In this document: positions 54,171 through 64,000 of the stretch, one piece after another
Position numbering within the stretch: position 1 is the stretch's first letter
Layout: every line of letters starts with the position of its first letter
DNA from: a bacterium
Lineage (GTDB): Bacteria; Hydrothermota; Tepidihabitantia; Tepidihabitantales; Tepidihabitantaceae
NCBI GenBank assembly: GCA_046485285.1
Contig: JAWOHE010000021.1
Coordinates: 994 to 64,993 of the forward strand
Direction of reading: 5' to 3'
Length of the DNA: 64,000 nt
Translations under genes and position numbers: made by a program
The notes under the pieces: generated by a model
What the model saw: the letters and a program-made list of their open reading frames with translations, nothing else
Databases searched by the model: none
Told to the model about the DNA's origin: nothing

Positions 54171-55463
54171 TCAGCGGAGCGCCTGACGCTCCCACTCGGA
54201 CTTCACCCTGGCGGAGCAGGCGGCAACGCTGCGATGGAATCCCCGGTCAGCCAGCTCCGCCTGCAGACCTTCGCTCGCCTGCTTCAGCGGAGCGAGGCGC
54301 CGCACTCGGCGGTAGCGGTCATACCACTTCACCCAGCCTGCCGCCAGCTTCTGCTCGGCGGCGGTCCAGTGCGGATTGCGCGGCCCGCGCAGACCCCGTT
54401 GGTGGGCCAGATTCAGGATCGCCATGTGAATCGTGTCGAGCGTATGGCTGGGGAGGCGGCGCAGTTTCAGCGGGCCGGTTCTTGCCAGGCGCGCAACCCG
54501 GCGCCCAATCGCGGCCAGGCACTGCTCGGCCGCGGCCCGCCAGTGCGGCAGTGCGCCGTTGTGAACCATCATCGCATACCGCTCAACCAGCCGCTCCTCG
54601 GTCTTCGTCAGCCAACTGTGACTGCGCGGCAACCCGGTGCGCGTCGCCTCGGTGCGAAGCGCGAACCGCACCGCCTTGTACGTCCGCGAGCCGCCCAGCT
54701 CGCGAAAACAGGCCTGCGCCGCGTCGTCGGAAAACTTGTGGCGTCCCTCGAACAACAGTCGCAGGTGACGGTTCAGCGCCCGGCGTTCGGCGGGTGTCCA
54801 CTCGTGCTTGAGCTTGGGCAGGCCCAGCTCGTGGGCGGCCGTGTACAACATCCAGTAGATGCCGTAGAACGGCCGCGGCCGCGGGTCGGTGCGGGCCAGC
54901 TCGCGCCGGCACGCCCTGGCGGCCTCGCGCATGCTCGGGTAGCGGCCGGCGAGATACGCCCGGGCATACCGGCGGATGGCCTTCATCTCCTGCAACCGGC
55001 GGCGGTGGAACCGCGCGCCCACGCCGGCGGCCCGCAACGCCTTGCTGAGACGCGCGTTCACCGTGCGTGAGGAACGGGCGGGCAACCGCGGCCCGTCGCG
55101 CTGACTCCGGCGCAGCGCTCCCAGCTCGCGCACACACCCCCGCACCGCGCCGGGCACATCCAGCGACGGATTGTCCGCGAACTTCGCGACCCAGCGCCGG
55201 ATGACGTCCAACTCGGCAGGCCGCCAGCGATAGCCGGGTGCGGACACCCCGGCCGCCAGCCTTCGCTCCCCGAGCTTGTACCTGACCGCAGACACCGAAC
55301 GGCGGGCACGACCGCCACTCGAGACCGCCAGCGCCGCGTGGCATGCCCGCGCCGCCTCGCTGCTGGAGACGTACCGGCCCTGCCCGAGCGCCCGGACGAA
55401 ACGGTCAACGACCGCAAGCTCGCGCGCCGTCCAGCCGTCCCGACGCTTCACTCCGGCCCTCAT
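54171..55463 (-). CDS. Hypothetical protein built from six tandem SANT/Myb-like three-helix repeats
   Basis: 430 aa, Arg-rich. Six ~65-70-aa repeats open with W(T/R)xxE: WTARELAVVDRFV, WRPAELDVIRRWV, (R)LQEMKAIRRYA, WTPAERRALNRHL, WLTKTEERLVERY, WTAAEQKLAAGWV. Each is followed by an AAxxCxxEL-like helix and an R(S/T)xxAVxxxL-like helix. Confidence 0.65.
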   Translation of the reverse strand: MRAGVKRRDGWTARELAVVDRFVRALGQGRYVSSSEAARACHAALAVSSGGRARRSVSAVRYKLGERRLAAGVSAPGYRWRPAELDVIRRWVAKFADNPSLDVPGAVRGCVRELGALRRSQRDGPRLPARSSRTVNARLSKALRAAGVGARFHRRRLQEMKAIRRYARAYLAGRYPSMREAARACRRELARTDPRPRPFYGIYWMLYTAAHELGLPKLKHEWTPAERRALNRHLRLLFEGRHKFSDDAAQACFRELGGSRTYKAVRFALRTEATRTGLPRSHSWLTKTEERLVERYAMMVHNGALPHWRAAAEQCLAAIGRRVARLARTGPLKLRRLPSHTLDTIHMAILNLAHQRGLRGPRNPHWTAAEQKLAAGWVKWYDRYRRVRRLAPLKQASEGLQAELADRGFHRSVAACSARVKSEWERQALR

Positions 55464-55731: not shown

Positions 55732-56793
55732 TCACTTGAGGGTAGTACGCTTACTCCGGACCTGCCGCCAGCGGGCGGCCGGGCCGCGGCCGCGGCAGAT
55801 CACTTCGCCGGACCTCTTCATCTCGGCCAGAACCAGCCGAATCCACTCGCGTCCTACGCCGGGACACGCCTGCTCGATGTCAGCCAGGCGGAACTCGCCG
55901 GCGCGAGCCCGAACGGCACGCAGTACGAGTTCACGCTTCGCGCCCCGCGGCGCCTGGACCTGTCCCACCCGCTCCTCGAACTCCCGATAGGCCGACTTCA
56001 GGGTGTAGAGCACGAAGTTGACGTAGTGCCAGGGGTTGTTTTTGCCCTGGTGCCAGCCCTCGGAACTCAGCTCCAGCGTCTCGTAGTAGCGGTCTTTGTT
56101 CTGCTCAACCAGTCGTTCCAGGCTGATGTACCGGCCGACCTCGTATCCGAGGTGATAACACTGAAGCAGCATGAGCAGCCGCGAGACCCGGCCGTTGCCG
56201 TCGCGGAACGGGTGGATGCACAGGAAGTCGAGGTTGAAACCGGCCAGGGCGATTACCGGATGAACCGTGCGTTCGCGACGCAGGTCTCGCCAGAGGTTGA
56301 CCATCTCTTTACTGTCGGCCGCGATCCTCTCCGGGGCGACGGTGCGGAACCGGACGCGCTCGCGCCCGTCCGCATAGCGCTGGATGATGTCGCAGGGTTT
56401 GGTACGGTACTTGCCGGCGTCCCATATCTGGCCGCGGGCCAGCCGGTGAAGACGCTTGATGACCGCTTCGGTGACCGCCAGTCGGCCGCCGCGTTCATGC
56501 ACGTCTTTGAGTGCGTCGCGGTAGCCGCGAACTTCTTCCTCATCGCGGTCACGCAGGAGCGAGCGGCCGATGATGACTGGTCGGATGCGGGCCGGGGCGA
56601 TGCTGACACCCTCGATGCGATTGGACGATACTGCACTCTCAATCAGTGCGTGCTCACGTAGAACCTTGAGTAGTTGCGGCGACTGGCGCGTGAACAGCTC
56701 CTGCCTGCCTTGCGACTTGTCGAGGTCGGCAAGATACCAGGCGGTGACTGCGGGGATAGACTCCAGACCGGCGGCAAACCGGCGCAGGGTCAC
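55732..56793 (-). CDS. Fic family protein (AMPylase-type), with N-terminal inhibitory-helix motif
   Basis: Fic core motif IHPFRDGNGRVSRLL (HxFx(D/E)GNGRxxR). N-terminal SNRIEG fits the (S/T)xxxE(G/N) auto-inhibition motif. The C-terminus is winged-helix-like. GTG start overlaps the stop of the hsdM fragment (GTGA). Confidence 0.88.
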   Translation of the reverse strand: MTLRRFAAGLESIPAVTAWYLADLDKSQGRQELFTRQSPQLLKVLREHALIESAVSSNRIEGVSIAPARIRPVIIGRSLLRDRDEEEVRGYRDALKDVHERGGRLAVTEAVIKRLHRLARGQIWDAGKYRTKPCDIIQRYADGRERVRFRTVAPERIAADSKEMVNLWRDLRRERTVHPVIALAGFNLDFLCIHPFRDGNGRVSRLLMLLQCYHLGYEVGRYISLERLVEQNKDRYYETLELSSEGWHQGKNNPWHYVNFVLYTLKSAYREFEERVGQVQAPRGAKRELVLRAVRARAGEFRLADIEQACPGVGREWIRLVLAEMKRSGEVICRGRGPAARWRQVRSKRTTLK

Positions 56794-57005
56794 TCCAGCA
56801 CCTCCTTCAGCAACCCTTCCGTCTCCTTCTCCAGCGCGAGGATGTCGGCGCGGATCTCTTCGAGCGTGCGCAGTTCCTGCGGCTTGTAGAAGTAGCGGTT
56901 GAAGCTGATTTCGTAGCCAATCTTGGTCTTGCTTTCGTCAATCCACGCATCCTTTGCGTACGGCAGCACCTCGCGCCGGATGAACGCCTCGACCCCGCCT
57001 TCCAC
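56790..57005 (-). pseudogene. 3'-terminal fragment of a type I R-M methyltransferase gene (hsdM)
   Basis: EGGVEAFIRREVLPYAKDAWIDESKTKIGYEISFNRYFYKPQELRTLEEIRADILALEKETEGLLKEVLE is the characteristic HsdM C-terminal tail. An in-frame TGA lies about 10 codons upstream of the GTG, and no methyltransferase core is present upstream. Confidence 0.7.
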
Positions 57006-57187
57006 CAGCAGGGGCTTGTGCGGCGCGCACCTCGTGCTTCTTGTGGACCCTCAGCGTTCCGAACAGGTGGACGAGCGAGTCCATCGTGTACGGGACCTGG
57101 CGCAGAACCTGCGCCCTGTCCGAGCCGCGAGAGTGACTTCCCATACAGAAGTAGTACCTAAAAGCCTCAGGATGTCAAAAGCGCCGC

Positions 57188-57345
57188 CCGTCATTTCGAC
57201 CGAAGTGGAGAAATCCCTTTCCGGCCCGCCAGGGCCGAAGTTTAAGGTTCCTGGTTCACAGTTCATCGTTCAGCGCTCCCCTCGTACCGGCCCATCTCCG
57301 CCGCTCGACCTCATCCTCTCCCCACTCGCCCATCCTCCCCGCGCC
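57188..57345 (+). repeat. Right copy (DR-R) of the composite non-coding repeat
   Basis: Direct-orientation partner of 52371-52532 (see DR-L). Contains the GTCATTTCGACC..GGAGAAATCCC unit, a 5x heptad array AGTTTAA-GGTTCCT-GGTTCAC-AGTTCAT-CGTTCAG (about 57240-57275) and the conserved tail. It ends 22 bp before the -35 box of the PLD-SNF2 operon. Confidence 0.8.
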
Positions 57346-57366
57346 CTCGGCATCGTCCTGCCCGCC

Positions 57367-57394
57367 TTGACTGCCGCCGCTCATCGTCTATTCT
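57367..57394 (+). promoter_or_regulatory. Sigma70-type promoter of the PLD-SNF2 / 4HB-Zn / MTase operon
   Basis: TTGACT (57367-57372), 16-nt spacer, TATTCT (57389-57394). 18 nt to ATG 57413 with no obvious Shine-Dalgarno sequence. Confidence 0.55.
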
Positions 57395-57412
57395 GGCGGA
57401 CCGCAGGGTACC

Positions 57413-60400
57413 ATGGCAGGCAAACTACCGACCATTATCGACAACCAGGGCGAAGTCACGCTCCGGGACGCCGTGGCACAGATCGCAGCCTCGACGAAGG
57501 AGCTCGACATCGCTACCGGGTTCTTCGAGCTGGGCGCGCTTCTCTCGCTCGACGGCGAATGGCAGCGCATCGGCAACGTTCGGATACTCCTCGGCGACCC
57601 GGCCAGCAGGAAAACGCGCCGCGAGTTGGTTGAGGCGTTCCGCCGCGGAAACGAAGATGCCATCGAGCAGTGCAAGGAACGGGACGACACGCTAACCGGC
57701 ATCGAAGCCGTCCGACAGGCACTCGACACCAGAAAGATTGCGGTTCGCGTCTACACCCGGGAGCGGTTCCACGCCAAGAGCTACATCTTCCACACCGAGC
57801 CGCCCAACCCGGTTGACTTCGCGGTCGTCGGCAGCAGCAACTTCACGCGGCCCGGGCTGGTCAAGAACGTCGAGCTCAACCTGCTGACCACCGACCAGGT
57901 CCACATCGAGAAGCTGAGCGAGTGGTTCGCCGGAATGTGGAACGACGCCGAGCAGCGCCTGCTCAACGAGGAAGCACTCGAAATCATCGCCCGCCATACC
58001 CGCGAGTACACTCCGTTCGAGGTCTACGCCAAAGCGCTCTACGAGTTCTTCGCCGGCAGGCAGAAGTCATCGGACGATTGGGAGCGGACCGAAAGCGCCG
58101 TCTACCCGCGCCTGTCCAAGTACCAGCAGGACGGCTATCACACGGCTCTGCGCATGGCCGAGAACTGGGGAGGAGCGCTCGTCTGCGACGGCGTCGGCCT
58201 CGGCAAGACCTACATCGGCCTGATGCTGCTGGAACGGCTCATCCACGACAAGAACCGGGTCCTGCTCATCGTGCCCAAGTCAGCCGAGGACAGCGTCTGG
58301 CTTCGACACATCCGCCCTTCGACAGCGAATCCCGACCCGATTCTCAAGCACCTGCACCGCTCCGTGTTTGGCCAGCTCTTCCGTGTCAAGCGTCACACCG
58401 ACTTCGGACGGCCCGGCACGATCCCCGAAGCCGAACTGCAGGAGCTTGAGCGGGACACCGACGCCATAATCGTCGATGAGGCCCATCACTTTCGGACTCC
58501 CTCGGCCTATCGCAGCAAGATGCTCAAGCGACTGGCGAAGGGAAAGCGGGTATTCCTGCTCACCGCCACGCCCATCAACAACCGCCTGCTTGACCTCTAC
58601 GAGCTCATCAGCTGCTTCGCGCCTGAGAAGGACCACTTCCGGAGCATCGCCATCCAGGACTACCGCCGGCTGTTCTCCAGACCCGACCGGCAGTTCGAGG
58701 AAGCCATCCGGCTCGGAGACTGGCGCGACCTGGCCGAGGTCGACAAGTTTCTGAGCGAGCAGCAGCTCTTCCGGCAGATCCTCATCCAGCGTAGCCGGCG
58801 CTACGTCAAGGAGTCCGAACAGGGCCGGGCCAACGCACCGATCTTCCCGGTGCGCCAGCGGCCGCGCGTCATCCGCTACTCCCTGCGGAAGGTGTACGCG
58901 ACCATCTATGACGAGATCAAGCAGGCGTTCGACCGCGAGGCGCCGTTCCTCAACCTCGCCCTCTACTGCACCGAGGCATACCGGAAGGGCGAGCCGGCCG
59001 AGAAGAAGCTCCTCGAACAGAAGCAGGTCGTCGGACTCATCCGGACGCTCCTGCTCAAGCGGCTGGAAAGCTCCTACAAGGCCTTTGAGGCGTCGGTCGA
59101 AGACCTGCTGGCAAAGATGGCCGAGTTCGTCCGCGCCTACGACCCCGACAAGTACGAAGGCTGGGTCAAAGCCAACGGCCGCTACTGGAGCCGCATCAAG
59201 GACCACCAGCACGCGCGGCTGGAGCTGTCCGACACCGAGGCCGAGGAAGAGGACCAGGAGGAAAATCTCCTGCCCGAGAGCCTGCAGATCGCGACGGCCG
59301 AGTACCATATGGACCGGCTCCTCGGCGACGTCATAGACGATATGAACGTCCTGCTCGAGTTCCTCGCCAAGATTGCGAAGCGGTTCTACACCACCGACGA
59401 CCGTGAGGACCCGGCGAGGGATGACAAGCTCCAGAAACTGCTCCTCCTGCTGACTTCGCCGCCCGACAAGGGCGAGCCGGACATCCGCGGCAGGAAGGTG
59501 GTCATCTTCTCCGAGTTCCGCGACACGGCCCGCTACCTGCTCCGGCAGCTCCGGGACGCTGGCCTGAAGGACGTCGAGGAAATGGACAGCACCCGGAAGA
59601 TGAACCGCGAGGAGGTCATCAAGCGGTTCGCGCCCCACTACAACTGCGAACCCGGTCAGGTCAGCGAGTACCTCGACAAGCCCATCAACATCCTGGTCTC
59701 GACCGACGTGCTCTCCGAGGGGCTCAACCTCCAGGACGCCTCGCTGATGGTCAACTACGACCTGCACTGGAACCCGGTGCGCCTGATGCAGCGCATCGGC
59801 CGCGTCGACCGGCGGATGGACGAGGCAATCGAGCGGCGGCTCAAGCGGCCGCGCCAGTTGGCCGGCAAGGTCTTCTTCTGGAACTTCCTGCCCCCGAAGG
59901 AACTCGAGGAGATCCTCGGGCTGTTCCGCCGCGTCACCGGCAAGGTACTTCGCATCAACGCCGCGCTCGGCATCGAGGGCGCTCTGCTCACGCCCGACGA
60001 CCCGGAGATGACGCTCAAGGAGTTCAACGAAGCCTACGAGGGCCGGGAAAGCGTCGAGGAGCAGATGCGACGCGAACTGGAGCGGGTCGAGCGGGAGCTG
60101 CCCGAGCTCTACGCGGAACTGGCCGACCTGCCGCGCCGGGTCTTCTCCGGCCGGGTAAGGGCGAGCCGAGTGCCGCTCAAGCCAGGGGTCTTCGCCGCCT
60201 ACCGAGTCTGGTCCGACCCGGATGCGAGGACATCCGACGTCCACTGGTACTACCGGGAACGCGGGAGCGGCGCCATCACCGAGGGCCTCGAGGAAATCTG
60301 GAAGACGGTGCGCTGCGAACAGGCCGAGCCGAGGGTGGTCAAGCTAGGCCCGAAGGGCCTGTCGCCGGAGCACGAGGCCATCGAAACCCACCGCGTCCGC

Positions 60401-60472
60401 AAGCTGATGCGCGACCGCGGCCTGCCGCTCTCGGTCAAGCCCGTGCTTGCCTGCTGGCTGGAGATTGCGTGA
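57413..60472 (+). CDS. PLD-nuclease-domain / SNF2-family helicase fusion protein
   Basis: 1019 aa. N-terminal HKD motif RFHAKSYIFH...FAVVGSSNFTRPGL. SNF2/DEAH core: CDGVGLGKTY (I), IIVDEAHHFR (II), FLLTATPINN (III), VSTDVLSEGLNLQ (V), DLHWNPVRLMQRIGRVDR (VI). Confidence 0.9.
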   Translation: MAGKLPTIIDNQGEVTLRDAVAQIAASTKELDIATGFFELGALLSLDGEWQRIGNVRILLGDPASRKTRRELVEAFRRGNEDAIEQCKERDDTLTGIEAVRQALDTRKIAVRVYTRERFHAKSYIFHTEPPNPVDFAVVGSSNFTRPGLVKNVELNLLTTDQVHIEKLSEWFAGMWNDAEQRLLNEEALEIIARHTREYTPFEVYAKALYEFFAGRQKSSDDWERTESAVYPRLSKYQQDGYHTALRMAENWGGALVCDGVGLGKTYIGLMLLERLIHDKNRVLLIVPKSAEDSVWLRHIRPSTANPDPILKHLHRSVFGQLFRVKRHTDFGRPGTIPEAELQELERDTDAIIVDEAHHFRTPSAYRSKMLKRLAKGKRVFLLTATPINNRLLDLYELISCFAPEKDHFRSIAIQDYRRLFSRPDRQFEEAIRLGDWRDLAEVDKFLSEQQLFRQILIQRSRRYVKESEQGRANAPIFPVRQRPRVIRYSLRKVYATIYDEIKQAFDREAPFLNLALYCTEAYRKGEPAEKKLLEQKQVVGLIRTLLLKRLESSYKAFEASVEDLLAKMAEFVRAYDPDKYEGWVKANGRYWSRIKDHQHARLELSDTEAEEEDQEENLLPESLQIATAEYHMDRLLGDVIDDMNVLLEFLAKIAKRFYTTDDREDPARDDKLQKLLLLLTSPPDKGEPDIRGRKVVIFSEFRDTARYLLRQLRDAGLKDVEEMDSTRKMNREEVIKRFAPHYNCEPGQVSEYLDKPINILVSTDVLSEGLNLQDASLMVNYDLHWNPVRLMQRIGRVDRRMDEAIERRLKRPRQLAGKVFFWNFLPPKELEEILGLFRRVTGKVLRINAALGIEGALLTPDDPEMTLKEFNEAYEGRESVEEQMRRELERVERELPELYAELADLPRRVFSGRVRASRVPLKPGVFAAYRVWSDPDARTSDVHWYYRERGSGAITEGLEEIWKTVRCEQAEPRVVKLGPKGLSPEHEAIETHRVRKLMRDRGLPLSVKPVLACWLEIA

Positions 60473-61299
60473 CCTCTGACCGATCGGTCGGACCCGGCCA
60501 ATCCGACCGATTGCCCGGCGTCAAGCGCCTCCGCCCATCCGGTGGCTACCGGCAGTTGCGGACCTTCCACGTCGCCACCGTCATCTACGACGCCACCGTC
60601 GCGTTCTGCGAGCGGTTCGTGGACCGGCAGAGCCGCACCCGGGACCAGATGGTGCAAGCCGCGCGCTCCGGCCGTCAGAACATCGCCGAGGGCAGTCGGG
60701 CCTCGGCCTCGTCCAGCCAGACCGAGCTCCGGCTGGTCAGCGTCGCCCGGGCCAGCCTCGACGAACTCCTTCTCGACTACGAAGACTTCCTGCGCCAGCG
60801 CGGCAAGCGCCAATGGGCCAAAGACGACCCCGAAGCCCGGGCGGTGCGGGAAGTCGGCAGGCGGCATCAGACCGATCGGTCAGATCGGACCGATCAGTCC
60901 GATTCCTCCCTTTACGCCCCTTGGCTCACCGCCGACGACCCGGCGGTCGTCGCCAACGCGGTCATCTGCCTGATTCACCAGGCCAACTACCTCCTCGACC
61001 GGCAGATTGCCGGGCTTGAGCGCGGCTTCGTCAAGGAGGGCGGCTACAGCGAGCAACTCGCCGCGGCCCGCATCGCCGAGCGGGCAAAGCATCAGTCCGA
61101 TCGGTCGGATCGGACCGATCGGTCCGATTCCTCTCCTTCCGCCCCGTTCTGCCCCCTCTGCGGCAGGCCAATGGCCCTGCGCACGGCCCGGAGAGGCGCA
61201 CTGCCCGGCTCGCAGTTCTGGGGCTGTACCGGCTACCCCGACTGCCGCAAGACACTGCCATTAGACGGATCAGTCGGATCCGACCGCTCCGTCCGATAA
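60469..61299 (+). CDS. Four-helix-bundle (23S rRNA-intervening-sequence protein family) protein fused to a topoisomerase-type C4 zinc ribbon
   Basis: GTG overlaps the upstream TGA (GTGA). YRQLRTFHVATVIYDATVAFCERF...MVQAARSGRQNIAEGS...ARASLDELLLDYEDFL is the 4HB family. ICLIHQANYLLDRQIAGLERGFVKEGGYSEQL is the suffix region. CPLCGRPMALRTARRGALPGSQFWGCTGYPDC is the zinc ribbon. Domains are separated by S/D/R/T-rich linkers. Confidence 0.8.
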   Translation: MTSDRSVGPGQSDRLPGVKRLRPSGGYRQLRTFHVATVIYDATVAFCERFVDRQSRTRDQMVQAARSGRQNIAEGSRASASSSQTELRLVSVARASLDELLLDYEDFLRQRGKRQWAKDDPEARAVREVGRRHQTDRSDRTDQSDSSLYAPWLTADDPAVVANAVICLIHQANYLLDRQIAGLERGFVKEGGYSEQLAAARIAERAKHQSDRSDRTDRSDSSPSAPFCPLCGRPMALRTARRGALPGSQFWGCTGYPDCRKTLPLDGSVGSDRSVR

Positions 61300-61303
61300 C
61301 GTA

Positions 61304-64000
61304 ATGCCCAACCCCTCCCGCCTCGAAGACGCGCTAAGAGCGGCCCGCGACTTCGAGTCCTTCGCGCAGGGCCTGCTCCACGGCGCGCTCAAGTGGCCGA
61401 TTCCGGAGGAGGCGGCACGACCCTTCGAGGTCGGCTACGAGTGGAGCGAGAACGAGGTCGGAACCGACCGCACCAGCCACAAGGCCCGGGCCTTCGAGCT
61501 GATGCTTCTGCCCCGGGAGCAACAACCCTGGGGCATCTTCCTGCTCGAGTTCCACGACAGGCGCGTCTTCGACACGCGCGGGTTCGCGACTCCGCTCCGC
61601 GCGGTCTTGCGGCGGCTGGTCGCCGGCCAGCGCAAGGACCCACACCTGCCGTCGTGGAAGCTCGACAATATCCTCTTCATCTGCACCCACGACTACCACC
61701 AGTTCGTGTTCGCGATGTTTCGCGACACCTTCCGGACCGGCAAGGTCAGCGAGGCCCGGCTGGCAAGCTTCGGCTGGCACCAGGGCGAGCCCTGCCGGAC
61801 CGCAATCCAGCACAACCTGCCCCACCTCAACTGGCCGTCCGAGCCGGAGGACAAGGAGGCGTGGGCAAAGCAGTGGGCCGAAGCGTTCAACAAGGAACCG
61901 CTCACCCGCAAGTTCTTCAAGCAGTTCGACTCGGTGCTGGAGCTCATCAAGGCCGACCTTGAGAAGCTCGGCAAGCTGCCTTCGGCCGATGCCTACTCCA
62001 AGGCCCAGCTTCTGCTCGAACGGCTCATCTTCCTCTACTTCGTCCAGAACCGGGGCTGGCTCGACCAGCAGGCGAACTTCCTGCGCGACGGATTCGAACC
62101 GCACAAGAACCGACCCGACAGTCATAGCTACTATGAGGAGTTCCTTGAGCCGCTGTTCTGGTCGCTCAGCTCGCCCGGACATTCTCAGTTGCGCCGGAAC
62201 GAGGCGGTGCCGTTCCTCAACGGCGGGCTGTTCAACGACGACGAGTTTGAACCCTCGCCCCGGCGCAGAAAAGACAACCCGGCCCTGCCGATTCGTAACG
62301 CGACCTTTGCGAAGGTGTTCGACGACCTGCTCGAAGCCTTCAACTTCACCGTCCGCGAGGATACCCCGCTCAACCAGGAAGTCGCGGTTGACCCTGAGAT
62401 GCTCGGCAAGGTATTTGAGAGCATCGTGCTTCACGCCGAGGCCGCGGATGAAACCGCGTCCGCGCCCGACAAGCGCAAGGAAACCGGCTCGTTCTATACC
62501 CCGCGCATCGTCGTCCACTTCATCTGCCGGGAGGTGCTGTACCAGTGGCTCCTGCCCCGGCTGAAAGGCGACAACTGGCCCGCCCGCCTGCGGCGATTGG
62601 TCGGATTGGACGGATCCGACGGATTGGACCAAGAAGAACTGAAGACCCTCAAGTCCTGCCTCTCGCCCGAAGAAGCCTCGGCCCTGCTGGAGTTGGTCAA
62701 GGCCCTGCGCTGCTGCGACCCTGCGGTCGGCTCGGGTGCGTTCATGATTGGCCTGCTCCACGAGCTCACCAACCTCCGTCGCCTGCTCCAGGCCGTTGCC
62801 AACGGCTACATCGACCCCTTGCGCAAAGACGGCGCGAAATGGCTCCACGAGACCAAGGCCGACATCATCCAGAACAACCTGTTCGGGGTGGACATCCAGC
62901 AACAGGCCATCGAAATCTGCATGCTCCGGCTCTGGCTCAGCCTTGTCGTGGACTACGACCTCGGGCTCGACCCGTTCGCCGCGGACCGGAAGGCGTTTCT
63001 TGCCGCGCTCAAGGAAGTTTCGCAACTGCCCAACCTCGAGATGAACTTCAAGCGCGGCGACAGCCTCCACGACCACATCTGCGGGGTGCCGGTCCGAATC
63101 ATCCCCGGGAAGGAACACCGGCACCAGAAGCAGTTCGACGCCATTCACCGGCTCGGCGCGAAACTGCACAAGGCGAAGTCCTGGGACTACAAGCGCAAGC
63201 TCAGGCTTGATATTCTTAAACACCGGCTGGAGGTCAGCGAGCTGGTGATTGCCGATGAGCTCAAGCTCCTCCGCCAGAAAGACTCGGTCCTGACCGGTAT
63301 GTTCGGCGAGGCCGGGTCCGATGCCGACCGGCGTCGGCGCTTCGCCCACGAAACCGGGCAACTGGAAGAAGCGCTTGAGGGAATCCGGGCCGCGCAGAAG
63401 ACGCGCGACTGGCTGGAAGGCCGGCCTCACGAACACAACTACCAGCAGAAGCTCCGCGAGCTCGAGGGCGCGAGCTTTGACGCGCCGTTCAACTTTGCCT
63501 GGCGGATTGATTTCCCGCAGGTCTTCTATCCCGGCGTTTCTTCTCCCTCTCCCTTGAAGGGAGAGGGTCGGGGTGAGGGTGGCTTCGACATCTTCGTCGG
63601 CAACCCGCCGTTTGTCACCGCCCGGAGAAAAGAACAGCGCGAGCGCTGGCGAGAACGCTGGCAGCCGTACTGCCACGGCAAGTATCATCTGCTCGTGCCC
63701 TTTTTCCCGCTCGCGGCCGAACTGCTCAAACCCGGGGGCCAGCTTGGCTACATCGTATCCAACGCCTTTGCCAAACGCGAGTTCGGCAAACCGCTGGTCG
63801 AGAAATTCCTGCCCACCACCGACCTGCAGAAGGTTGTGGACTGCTCCGGCCTGATGTTCCCGGGCCACGGCACCCGACCTGCCTTGTCTTCAGTCGAAAT
63901 GCCAAGCCATCACCGAAAACCCCGGTCCGGGTCGTAGCAACCCTGCCCGGTGGTGGTGACCTCCGCACCCCGCCCGAGGAATCACCGCTCTGGGCAACGC
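61304..64000 (+). CDS. Large N6-adenine DNA methyltransferase, Eco57I/PglX/DrmMI-like (apparent frameshift near 63873; continues past the window end)
   Basis: N-domain LLERLIFLYFVQNRGWL and VPFLNGGLFN. FYTPRIVVHFI. Motif I CCDPAVGSGAFMIGLL. LFGVDIQQQAIEICMLRLWLSL. Motif IV FDIFVGNPPFV. The annotated frame stops at 63937, but the frame starting at 63871 stays open to 64000 with sensible sequence (HPTCLVFSRNAKPSPKTPVRVVATLPGGGDL...). Confidence 0.85.

Follow-up and report, generated by a model that had tools for sequence, protein, structure and literature searches.

A PLD-SNF2 helicase-nuclease and a large adenine methylase as a probable two-gene ATP-dependent restriction-modification-like module

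Of the systems described so far, the sister architecture of the gene pair discussed here is MANTIS (MtsABCD; BREX-related type 2 or Gao_RL), by now characterized, in which an N-terminal single-HKD PLD domain is fused to an SF2/SNF2-type ATPase and an N6-adenine methylase marks self. Its effector MtsD is a dimeric PLD and SF2 protein with one shared active site (H122, with Walker A K260); targeting requires the methylase, and deletion of mtsC is not toxic. Type ISP enzymes (LlaGI, LlaBIII) combine a nuclease, an SF2 motor, a gamma-class methyltransferase and a recognition domain, Type_ISP_C, in a single polypeptide, and cut via translocation and collision between head-to-head asymmetric sites. 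In class 1 DISARM (DrmD, DrmMI, DrmA, DrmB, DrmC) a PLD nuclease accompanies an SNF2 helicase and the large N6-adenine methylase next to it; SauUSI fuses a PLD nuclease to an SF2 ATPase and acts as a dimer. The PLD-SNF2 fusion itself has been catalogued as PADLOC model PDLC01075, "C3a139 HKD+Snf2" (Shah 2018, PMC6546367), and pairs of PLD/SNF and Cj0031-like Type II restriction-modification genes, with the PLD domain cited as CDD cd09178, stand in a table in Milman 2023 (PMC9881135). The former cluster is the family of the helicase described below, and the latter pairs resemble our locus in having a Type IIG-like methylase adjacent to PLD/SNF, but both are catalogue entries that give no system definition, mechanism, or phenotype. 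In the open-access literature, where the pairing of PLD-SNF2 protein and methylase is mentioned only in passing, we found neither a name nor an experiment for it.

The window (the whole stretch of 64,000 nucleotides analyzed here) ends in such a pair. The PLD-SNF2 protein and the large adenine methylase probably constitute a widespread two-gene, ATP-dependent restriction-modification-like module, with the gene between them, encoding a four-helix-bundle and zinc ribbon (4HB-Zn) protein, as a dispensable passenger; the best reading of the pair is an ATP-dependent restriction-modification system of Type ISP/MANTIS-like kind, split over two genes. The sequence features listed in the initial annotation of this DNA (reading frames, motifs, gene overlap, frameshift, and promoter-like site) are all present.

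The first gene (57413..60472, forward strand) encodes a 1019-amino acid PLD(HKD)-SNF2 helicase-nuclease. The proposed fusion of both activities in one polypeptide is borne out by Pfam domains PLDc_2 (aa 22-176), SNF2-rel_dom, ResIII, and Helicase_C (aa 692-800), by the PLD motifs FHAKSYIFH (aa 119-127) and VVGSSNFT (aa 138-145), and by the helicase motifs DGVGLGKT (aa 259-266), IIVDEAHHFR (aa 352-361), LLTATPINN (aa 382-390), STDVLSEGLNLQ (aa 763-774), and HWNPVRLMQRIGRVDR (aa 785-800). No variation occurs across 20 homologues in H120, GSSN, Walker A GLGKT, DEAHH, or motif VI; the catalytic residues H120 and K265 compare with H122 and K260 of MtsD. PDLC01075 matches aa 13-899 over model positions 8-808 of 948 (E 4.6e-60), whereas the HmaA model (BR type 1, Hma) gives a partial match of 87 bits to aa 462-800. 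The AF2 model of the protein is of moderate confidence (pLDDT 72.6, pTM 0.46), and its top fold matches are SNF2 remodellers, RapA, and ZorD.

A candidate sigma-70-like promoter, TTGACT-N16-TATTCT (57367..57394, forward strand), lies 19 nt upstream of this gene. It is a consensus match only, and the sole promoter-like site in the 4.6 kb from 56900 to 61500, where shuffled sequences would yield 0.2. The neighbors that had been named as a relic hsdM, a Fic gene, and an ATPase gene were each identified by profile: the last approximately 66 codons of a type I hsdM (56793..57005, reverse strand; PDLC03029 positions 595-660 of 661, E 2.6e-26) abut a SoFic-like Fic gene (55735-56793, reverse strand; SoFic, 96 bits), and the DUF4143 ATPase matches PDC-S01 with 293 bits.

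The other member of the pair (61304..64000, forward strand, running off the window) is, from its reading frame, profiles, and homologues, a large gamma-class N6-adenine DNA methyltransferase of Eco57I/MmeI/PglX-like type. The initial annotation placed a methylase of more than 890 aa four nucleotides after the middle gene, and this is where its ATG stands, four nucleotides past the TAA, with 899 aa in the window once a frameshift is repaired. The two motifs named there were found, motif I at aa 470-480 and motif IV (GNPPFV) at aa 766-771, and DPAVGSGAF and GNPPF are nearly invariant among homologues; the Eco57I profile scores 92 bits, and MmeI_hel and MmeI_Mtase match weakly. Homologues are 1488-1501 aa in length and carry a C-terminal DUF7008, which is the recognition region in the window's clade, while others, many partner methylases among them, use Type_ISP_C (294 bits in the partner methylase of locus L003). 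The methylase is free of a nuclease: conservation among homologues reveals no conserved acidic/lysine (D/E/K) triad in aa 1-190. Compared with Type ISP enzymes, nuclease, motor, gamma-class methyltransferase, and recognition domain are all present, but they are distributed over two polypeptides, with a PLD/HKD nuclease and an SNF2-type motor in place of an Mrr/PD-QxK nuclease and an SF2 motor in one chain.

Comparison with homologues reveals a 1-nt deletion in the methylase gene (63869..63883, forward strand; GGCACCCGACCTGCC); the reading frame is lost behind FPGHGT and runs into a stop at 63935-63937. Homologues have GGCACACCAACCTGC (G-T-P-T-C) at this site versus GGCACCCGACCTGC in the window, with one base missing at about 63873; the frameshift noted at the outset is real in the deposited sequence, and the NCBI annotation is of a truncated 877-aa product (P0241). 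Since the contig totals only 65,377 nt, the assembly gives no extension past the methylase, whose 3′ third is missing. With its frameshift ahead of the recognition region and the contig ending inside the gene, the window copy may be inactive. There is a substantial chance, somewhat short of even, that this copy is a decaying non-functional relic, which concerns its own state and not the nature of the family. The deletion truncates the protein past motif IV, a helicase or methylase gene is often split in related loci (L022, L045, L059, L060, L068, and L072), and the hsdM relic is among the neighboring genes. However, the helicase reading frame is fully intact, and the shifted methylase frame is 69% identical to the L002 homologue and stop-free to the end of the window, as expected of either a mutation that arose very recently or a misassembly in a short run of C.

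The methylase begins with a family-specific N-terminal domain (61304..61888, forward strand) with a QPWGIF..EF motif, for which the evidence is conservation, an AF2 model, and HMM co-occurrence. The model is confident (pLDDT 87) and has no PDB match (best E 0.33). An HMM of the domain matched 83 ORFs, every one directly downstream of a PLD-SNF2 gene and with both recognition-domain flavors represented; among 1.84 billion clusters it occurs in 374, nearly all at the N-terminus of proteins of approximately 1000-1500 aa. No single-polypeptide fusion of this domain with the helicase occurs among the best 150 representatives. Judged from sequence, the domain is the hallmark common to partner methylases regardless of their recognition domain, and its co-occurrence alone leads us to propose that it may act as a docking module for the helicase-nuclease.

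Relatives of the PLD-SNF2 protein number 575 among GTDB species representatives, and 84 related loci were compared. Of the 73 loci where 1.5 kb or more of downstream sequence is available, 71 have this methylase after the PLD-SNF2 gene on the same strand, often at a spacing of 0-10 nt or in overlap. These loci span Planctomycetota, Poribacteria, Chloroflexota, Acidobacteriota, Proteobacteria, and Bacteroidota, along with one Thermoplasmatales MAG; L060 and L074, in which a methylase was not detectable, both look disrupted. The co-occurrence that the initial annotation put up for testing holds for helicase and methylase, while the 4HB-Zn gene is rarely linked to them, and no third partner emerges: other flanking families recur in 4 of the 84 loci at most.

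The 4HB-Zn gene (60469..61299, forward strand) starts with a GTG at 60469 that the TGA of the helicase gene (60470-60472) overlaps, as had been described. Its three proposed domains all score above profile cut-offs: the four-helix bundle (23S-rRNA-IVS/TIGR02436, 30 bits versus 24), the 4helix_suffix (TIGR04258, 73 bits versus 40), and a topoisomerase-type C4 zinc ribbon (Zn_ribbon_Top1, 37.8 bits versus 32). Counted from the GTG, the protein has 276 aa; the NCBI start, 14 codons later, gives 262 aa. Four copies of a GATCGG(A/T)CNGATC-type palindromic repeat lie within the gene. The first, at the 5′ edge (60472..60511; hairpin of -21.4 kcal/mol), encodes an SDRS... leader; the second (60864..60903; -25.7 kcal/mol, z -3.9) encodes the linker TDRSDRTDQSD between bundle and suffix; and a repeat search places the third in the linker SDRSDRTDRSD between suffix domain and zinc ribbon (61089..61128) and the fourth in the C-terminal tail just 5′ of the stop codon (61258..61297).

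We consider it unlikely that the system truly has three components in the window's clade, with the product of this gene indispensable as a DNA-binding or regulatory subunit. The GTGA overlap with the helicase gene and the 4-nt gap before the methylase suggest co-translation, locus L002 has the same arrangement at 70% identity, L001 contains, in decayed form, a copy of the entire cassette with the gene still between relics of helicase and methylase, and conservation of the protein across phyla is high (65-79% identity). But the gene occupies this position only in the window and L002 among the 84 loci; it is missing from the intact system of L001 (80% identity, genes abutting), from L003 and L004, and from 80 of 80 genome-scan loci, and members at 72-74% identity lie upstream of type I hsdR and adjoin AbiE. 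The slot is empty in most loci and elsewhere holds other genes, toxin-antitoxin genes among them: PIN, MazF, MqsA, ORF6N, NYN, Fic, GIY-YIG, DUF1016, RhuM, or AAA+S8. The 4HB-Zn gene is one of several facultative guests in a variable slot. Of the compact, undescribed helicase-nuclease/methylase system envisaged as one option in the initial annotation, the compactness stands, whereas the conserved unit has two genes rather than three and the catalogue entries PDLC01075 and Milman 2023 precede it.

Alternatively, the PLD-SNF2 protein could be an autonomous, modification-dependent Type IV nuclease like SauUSI, with the methylase, Type IIG or orphan, working independently of it in the same island. 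SauUSI is among the fold matches (rank 24), and partner methylases would be labeled "REase_MTase_IIG" by PADLOC (754 bits in L003). This too is improbable: SauUSI has its own domain for reading modified cytosine and no partner methylase, whereas Pfam, PADLOC, and NCBIfam-type profile searches detected no modified-base reader in the helicase, and the methylase here is an obligate neighbor, same-strand and overlapping or abutting across phyla, without a nuclease domain and with an N-terminal domain exclusive to partners of PLD-SNF2 genes.

The reading of these genes as the beginning of a class 1 DISARM or BREX locus that continues past the window, which the initial annotation held open for DISARM, is very improbable and largely refuted, as homologous loci with complete flanks (63-80% identity), among them L002 with housekeeping genes on its borders, contain no DrmA, DrmB/DUF1998, PglZ, or BrxC. 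Class 1 DISARM does include all three kinds of protein (SNF2 helicase, PLD nuclease, large N6-adenine methylase), the PADLOC DrmD and DrmMI models match partially, and the sequence downstream of the methylase is outside view in this MAG. Yet the DrmD equivalog scores 144 bits against a cut-off of 610, over aa 514-904 only, PLD is fused to SNF2 here, and the core triplet of DrmA, DrmB (DUF1998), and DrmC is absent. A full-length methylase homologue comes near the NCBIfam BREX-2 PglX cut-off (397.3 versus 400 bits; 429 bits with PADLOC PglX), but only positions 358-792 of the 1185 in the model are matched, by the part of the homologue that runs from motif IV to within the recognition region, and its first 750 aa and terminal DUF7008 fall outside; PglZ, BrxC/PglY, BrxA/B, and BrxL are absent. 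Nothing is conserved in the flanks of the 84 loci, neither DrmA/DrmB, PglZ, BrxC/DUF499, nor DUF3780, and the two-gene module lies outside DISARM and BREX. The last two families, found in none of the related loci, also separate it from MANTIS, which has a DUF499 AAA+ ATPase (MtsA) and a DUF3780 protein (MtsB), and whose COG1743-type methylase MtsC needs a loader, whereas the methylase here, an Eco57I/MmeI/PglX-like gamma-class enzyme, is from another family and has its own recognition domain.

For the two-gene module, we infer a role in defense by the following route. The methylase, through its own target-recognition region, would methylate host DNA at a short and probably asymmetric site. The PLD-SNF2 protein would be the only nuclease and motor, a single-HKD PLD domain fused to an SNF2 double-stranded DNA translocase, and two copies of its PLD domain would be needed for one active site. 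At an unmodified site the methylase may recruit the PLD-SNF2 protein via the family-specific N-terminal domain; ATP-driven translocation would then let two complexes, or two PLD domains, meet, and the foreign DNA would be cut by the PLD site formed in the dimer. The module would in this way resemble a Type ISP enzyme as two polypeptides, or MANTIS minus its AAA+ loader.

The conserved unit of the operon is a pair of genes, a helicase-nuclease followed by a methylase. Searching a single genome for each GTDB species returned 575 relatives, from which 80 loci were fetched. Of 84 loci, 77 have a methylase homologue after the helicase on the same strand. Where 1.5 kb or more of downstream sequence is available, the figure is 71 of 73, the other two being L060, in which the helicase is broken, and L074, an IS-interrupted contig end. 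Complete genomes carrying the pair include Sedimentisphaera cyanobacteriorum CP019633 and Desulfonema magnum CP061800. The compact helicase-nuclease/methyltransferase system envisaged in the initial annotation is thus upheld, as a two-gene family, and the clustering of homologues proposed there supports linkage of these two genes and not of the gene between them. Of the four close relatives inspected first, L001 (helicase 80% identical) has the helicase abutting a 1,501-aa methylase, L002 (70%) has the helicase, a four-helix-bundle zinc-ribbon (4HB-Zn) gene, and a 1,488-aa methylase with housekeeping genes on either side, L004 (63%) carries an NYN gene in the middle slot, and L003 (50%), from the complete genome of Sedimentisphaera, has the helicase and a 1,166-aa methylase with Type_ISP_C.

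Clustering of all flanking ORFs from the 84 loci produced no family common to more than four of them, the few shared families representing synteny between close relatives, and a Pfam search of the 65 largest ORFs in the flanks found nothing recurrent, with DUF1998, PglZ, and DUF499 not among recurrent families. Two candidates for a third gene were rejected: a 432-aa ORF after the L001 methylase, which is non-recurrent and has no Pfam or PADLOC match, and a reverse-transcriptase and SF1-helicase pair found after the methylase in L059, L081, and L082 only. In an Acidobacteriota/Binatia subclade, the methylase is followed at once by a protein of 1,050 to 1,250 aa with a weak RVT_1 match and then by an SF1 helicase (AAA_30/UvrD_C_2), with ORFs at L059 18273-22031, L081 16981-20745 and 20742-23120, L082 17160-20324, and L052 17117-20782. 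These two proteins may constitute an adjacent DRT-like defence system.

The helicase-nuclease gene (57413..60472, forward strand) encodes 1,019 aa, with a PLD domain (PLDc_2, aa 22-176) fused at the N-terminus of an SNF2 protein (SNF2-rel_dom/ResIII, and Helicase_C at aa 692-800; Pfam), and its product contains every motif first quoted for it. In an alignment of 20 homologues with 50-80% identity the catalytic residues are invariant (H120, G140-S142, D259-T266, D355/E356/H358-R361, and T384-N390), as is the stretch H785-R801 save for M792, I795, and V798, which are at least 90% conserved. Each chain contains a single HKD motif and, from what is established for Nuc, BfiI, and SauUSI and more recently for MtsD, two chains must pair to build one active site. 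An AF2 model of the helicase (pLDDT 72.6) had its best fold matches in SNF2 remodellers, RapA, and ZorD, with SauUSI also matched, and a sequence search of the PDB gave generic SNF2/DEAD matches only. The top PADLOC model was PDLC01075, "C3a139 HKD+Snf2" (202 bits, E 4.6e-60), and the near full-length match of aa 13-899 to model positions 8-808 of 948 places the protein in this HKD+Snf2 family; the PADLOC models for DrmD, HmaA, BrxH, and DpdE matched only partially. The promoter-like site previously noticed ahead of the operon was recovered at 57367-57394 as the sole such site in 4.6 kb, scans for Rho-independent terminators returned chance levels, and Rfam had no match in 56500-64000.

This promoter region and the gene start lie just beyond a break in a type I hsdM gene. 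Only the last ~66 codons of hsdM persist (56793-57005, minus strand), directly preceding a SoFic-like Fic gene within 55735-57412. Since the body of hsdM is gone and the PLD-SNF2 gene starts just past that point, the two-gene module may have taken the place of a type I system. The neighbouring hsdM relic, Fic gene, and ATPase gene were confirmed, the ATPase being of the DUF4143 type; a 430-aa Arg/Ala-rich ORF between the latter two (54171-55463, minus strand) has no Pfam or PADLOC match.

The methylase begins at ATG 61304 on the forward strand, 4 nt past the stop of the middle gene, and carries motif I (aa 470-480) and GNPPFV (aa 766-771), as had been described. Its scores against Eco57I (91.9 bits, cut-off 25.3) and the PADLOC REase_MTase_IIG model (E 1e-45), with MmeI_hel and MmeI_Mtase slightly under their cut-offs, point to an Eco57I/MmeI-type gamma-class N6A methyltransferase core with a helical spacer. 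The suspected frameshift is real relative to homologues: one base is absent at ~63873 (GGCACCCGACC against GGCACACCAACC), and the shifted frame keeps 69% identity up to the window end. Because full-length homologues have 1,488-1,501 aa and the window covers 899 aa, and because the source contig of the identical proteins P0001, P0121, and P0241 (the last being NCBI's truncated 877-aa methylase) is 65,377 nt long in this NCBI MAG, it is the end of the contig that truncates the gene. Exact look-ups of the window's helicase, 4HB, and P0001 proteins gave no contig record, and the last 46 nt of the window had no exact match among the metagenome contigs scanned. The contig thus could not be extended, and related loci were used in place of the missing 3' flank.

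The first ~190 aa of the methylase have conserved hydrophobic and aromatic motifs (QPWGIF..EF, LR..LR.LV, LLFI, FGW), and no conserved catalytic D/E/K triad was found in aa 1-190. An AF2 model of aa 1-340 (pLDDT 87) had no significant fold match in the PDB (best E 0.33), so an MmeI-like nuclease fold for the N-terminus is unsupported, and the endonuclease domain that defines Type IIG enzymes within the gamma-methyltransferase polypeptide was not detected by either approach. By sequence, the PDB returned only CamA, at motif IV. The central part of P0243, an intact homologue of the L002 type that is 72% identical to the window methylase, scored 397.3 bits against the BREX-2 PglX model (cut-off 400) over model positions 358-792 only; the truncated window methylase scored 102 bits against the PglX equivalog (cut-off 400), and an L003-type methylase 754 bits against a REBASE-derived "Type IIG" model. 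With an N-domain that lacks both the triad and a PDB fold, and with this likeness to PglX and "Type IIG" enzymes, the methylase is thus a Type IIG/PglX-like gamma-methyltransferase without a nuclease of its own.

The N-terminal domain itself (N-domain; 61304..61888) is specific to the family. An HMM built on it matches 83 ORFs of the fetched loci, every one directly downstream of a PLD-SNF2 gene, and recognises both flavours of partner methylase, those with DUF7008 and those with Type_ISP_C. Among 1.84 billion cluster representatives it has 374 matches only, N-terminal in nearly all of those listed, with complete proteins of ~1,000-1,500 aa. Poribacteria loci contain an extra small ORF consisting of the N-domain alone between helicase and methylase (L014 13049-13519, L016 10946-11653, L018 13150-13692, L023 12867-13661, and L027 13118-13606), possibly an adaptor that was duplicated, or else a relic; a full methylase lies downstream in four of the five, and the L027 contig ends first. 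A tblastn search of plasmids found only more distant relatives (27-30% identity) on a Thermococcus profundus plasmid (L091) and on Microcystis aeruginosa plasmid p1 (L092), where the gene order is reversed: methylase, guests (AbiEii, or a nucleotidyltransferase and SLATT), then helicase. Their methylases were not matched by the N-domain HMM, and because they lack this domain these loci were set apart as a sister architecture, one that shares the habit of housing guests in the middle.

Taken as a whole, the pair is most likely a split Type ISP-like or loader-free MANTIS-like restriction-modification system. Somewhat more tentatively, we lean towards an autonomous, unnamed ATP-dependent class ("split Type ISP" or "loader-free MANTIS") in which the N-domain acts as an adaptor, a claim that extends to at least 575 species-level genomes. 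Type ISP enzymes are one polypeptide with an Mrr-type nuclease, whereas the functions here are divided between two polypeptides and the nuclease is of the PLD type, and no protein above 1,520 aa, as a single-chain form would be, occurs among the 150 best N-domain matches. Type_ISP_C is present in L003-type partners (294 bits); the clade of the window has DUF7008, and the window gene is cut before this region. The MANTIS effector MtsD shares the architecture of the window helicase, with HKD N-terminal to an SF2/SNF2 ATPase. Of the other MANTIS parts, DUF499 (MtsA) and DUF3780 (MtsB) are absent from L001-L004 and no flanking family is recurrent, small ORFs of DUF3780 size having been covered by clustering alone.

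The logic of such a pair is familiar from ATP-dependent restriction-modification. The methylase and its recognition region would recognise and methylate a site, probably an asymmetric one, and at unmodified sites the methylase would recruit the PLD-SNF2 protein, probably through the N-domain, which would couple site recognition to a dimerising PLD motor-nuclease. ATP-driven translocation would then bring two PLD domains together in a collision that cuts the DNA, with restriction as the expected phenotype. The analysis establishes which domains are present, that their motifs are intact, that the genes are linked, and that the methylase carries no nuclease; recruitment, collision, asymmetry of the site, and the phenotype are inferred. 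In the MANTIS preprint, which is experimental, the effector acts as a dimer sharing one PLD site, requires the methylase complex for targeting, and prefers inverted site pairs, and deletion of mtsC is non-toxic (10.64898/2026.09.23.753747). The intact helicase beside a frameshifted methylase in the window is compatible with methylase-dependent targeting of this kind, by analogy with the mtsC deletion, and equally compatible with an assembly error. The window copy is of lower value because it is frameshifted and incomplete.

Both the PLD-SNF2 fusion and its pairing with a methylase have been catalogued already. "C3a139 HKD+Snf2" is an entry in a catalogue of type III CRISPR-linked genes (PMC6546367), Milman et al. 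[quoted passage not shown] In the open-access literature we found neither a name for the two-gene form nor an experimental test of it; the family has been seen before, yet is uncharacterised.

A less likely reading than the split system places the emphasis on the middle gene, whose 4HB-Zn product with palindromic GATCGGNCC linkers may be a mobile cassette that settles, as a passenger, specifically in restriction operons. The gene (276 aa, forward strand) starts at GTG 60469, overlapping the helicase TGA, and encodes TIGR02436, TIGR04258, and Zn_ribbon_Top1 domains, in agreement with its first description; TIGR04258 scored 73 (cut-off 40) and TIGR02436 30 (cut-off 24) in NCBIfam, identifying a four-helix-bundle suffix protein, in line with its NCBI annotation ("four helix bundle suffix domain-containing protein"). 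Helicase and methylase are 0.4-4 kb apart in 28 related loci, and the gaps contain ORF6N (4 ORFs), PIN (3), DUF1016/YhcG, GIY-YIG, DUF3800, MqsA, MazF, RhuM, Fic, NYN, and AAA+subtilase genes, making the middle slot a landing pad for variable genes. The 4HB-Zn family is very large, with at least 8,000 candidates, all those scored having E 1e-5 or better, and its best 120 matches, the 100% self-match apart, share 65-79% identity across phyla. Because 4HB-Zn holds the slot in the window and L002 only, and relatives at 72-74% identity lie upstream of a type I hsdR or adjoin AbiE on a plasmid-like element, it is a guest and no specific subunit of the helicase/methylase system.

The 4HB-Zn genes carry in-frame palindromic repeats, GATCGG(A/T)CNGATC, with a 9-nt period, at 60472-60511, 60864-60903, 61089-61128, and 61258-61297 in the window and at L001 5315-5570, L002 13417-13808, L085 7076-7866, and L090 7104-7896 elsewhere. 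They encode (T/S)DRSD(R/P)(S/T)D linkers in the N-leader, at both domain junctions, and in the C-tail, are confined to 4HB-Zn genes across all fetched loci (just over 1.3 Mb) bar one match in L054, and every copy could fold into a hairpin of 10-12 bp (-16 to -26 kcal/mol). They may serve recombination or the shuffling of domains, confer mobility, or act as structured RNA between the genes for nuclease and methylase. In the window's nearest clade, 4HB-Zn recurs in the window, L002, and a second, decayed version of the complete cassette in L001 (4575-5874), which adjoins a phage-type integrase 5 kb upstream of the intact, guest-free two-gene system. There, a PLD fragment (equivalent to aa 88-176) is fused to a "...CRLE" helicase C-terminal relic and the methylase N-terminus is a 38-aa relic; the 4HB-Zn gene is intact, the guest having outlived its host genes.

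The weakest alternative, that the locus is part of DISARM or BREX, is rejected, since the defining genes are absent in relatives and the DrmD score is far under cut-off. Pfam annotation of the related loci L001-L004 shows neither DrmA and DrmB (DUF1998) nor PglZ and BrxC/PglY, and none of them recurs among the genes flanking the 84 loci, so that the suggested 5' end of a class 1 DISARM-like locus did not hold up, and downstream genes of the related loci complete neither system. Against the DrmD equivalogs (NF038317/NF038318), the window helicase scored 144 vs 610 and 93.9 vs 950 bits, both partial, and the protein P0078 scored 138 bits (cut-off 610). Class 1 DISARM has a separate DrmC PLD gene, whereas here PLD is fused to SNF2, and no stand-alone PLD gene is conserved nearby in L001-L004 or the clustered flanks.

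If the split restriction-modification reading is true, the pair would be the simplest known motor-driven, methylation-guided restriction by a PLD nuclease, with two proteins and no AAA+ loader. Set beside MANTIS, Type ISP, and DISARM, it would offer a clean view of the handover of an unmodified site from methylase to translocating nuclease, and of the tolerance of hemimethylated asymmetric sites. Under their current rules, defence finders would miss the pair as a system and report only a lone "Type IIG" or "PglX" methylase and an isolated SNF2 helicase. Annotation would be corrected in hundreds of genomes where a "helicase-related protein" now stands beside a "hypothetical protein" or a methylase labelled "Type IIG". 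The middle slot, being variable, shows that restriction operons serve as landing pads on which toxin-antitoxin genes and other small genes tied to defence settle.
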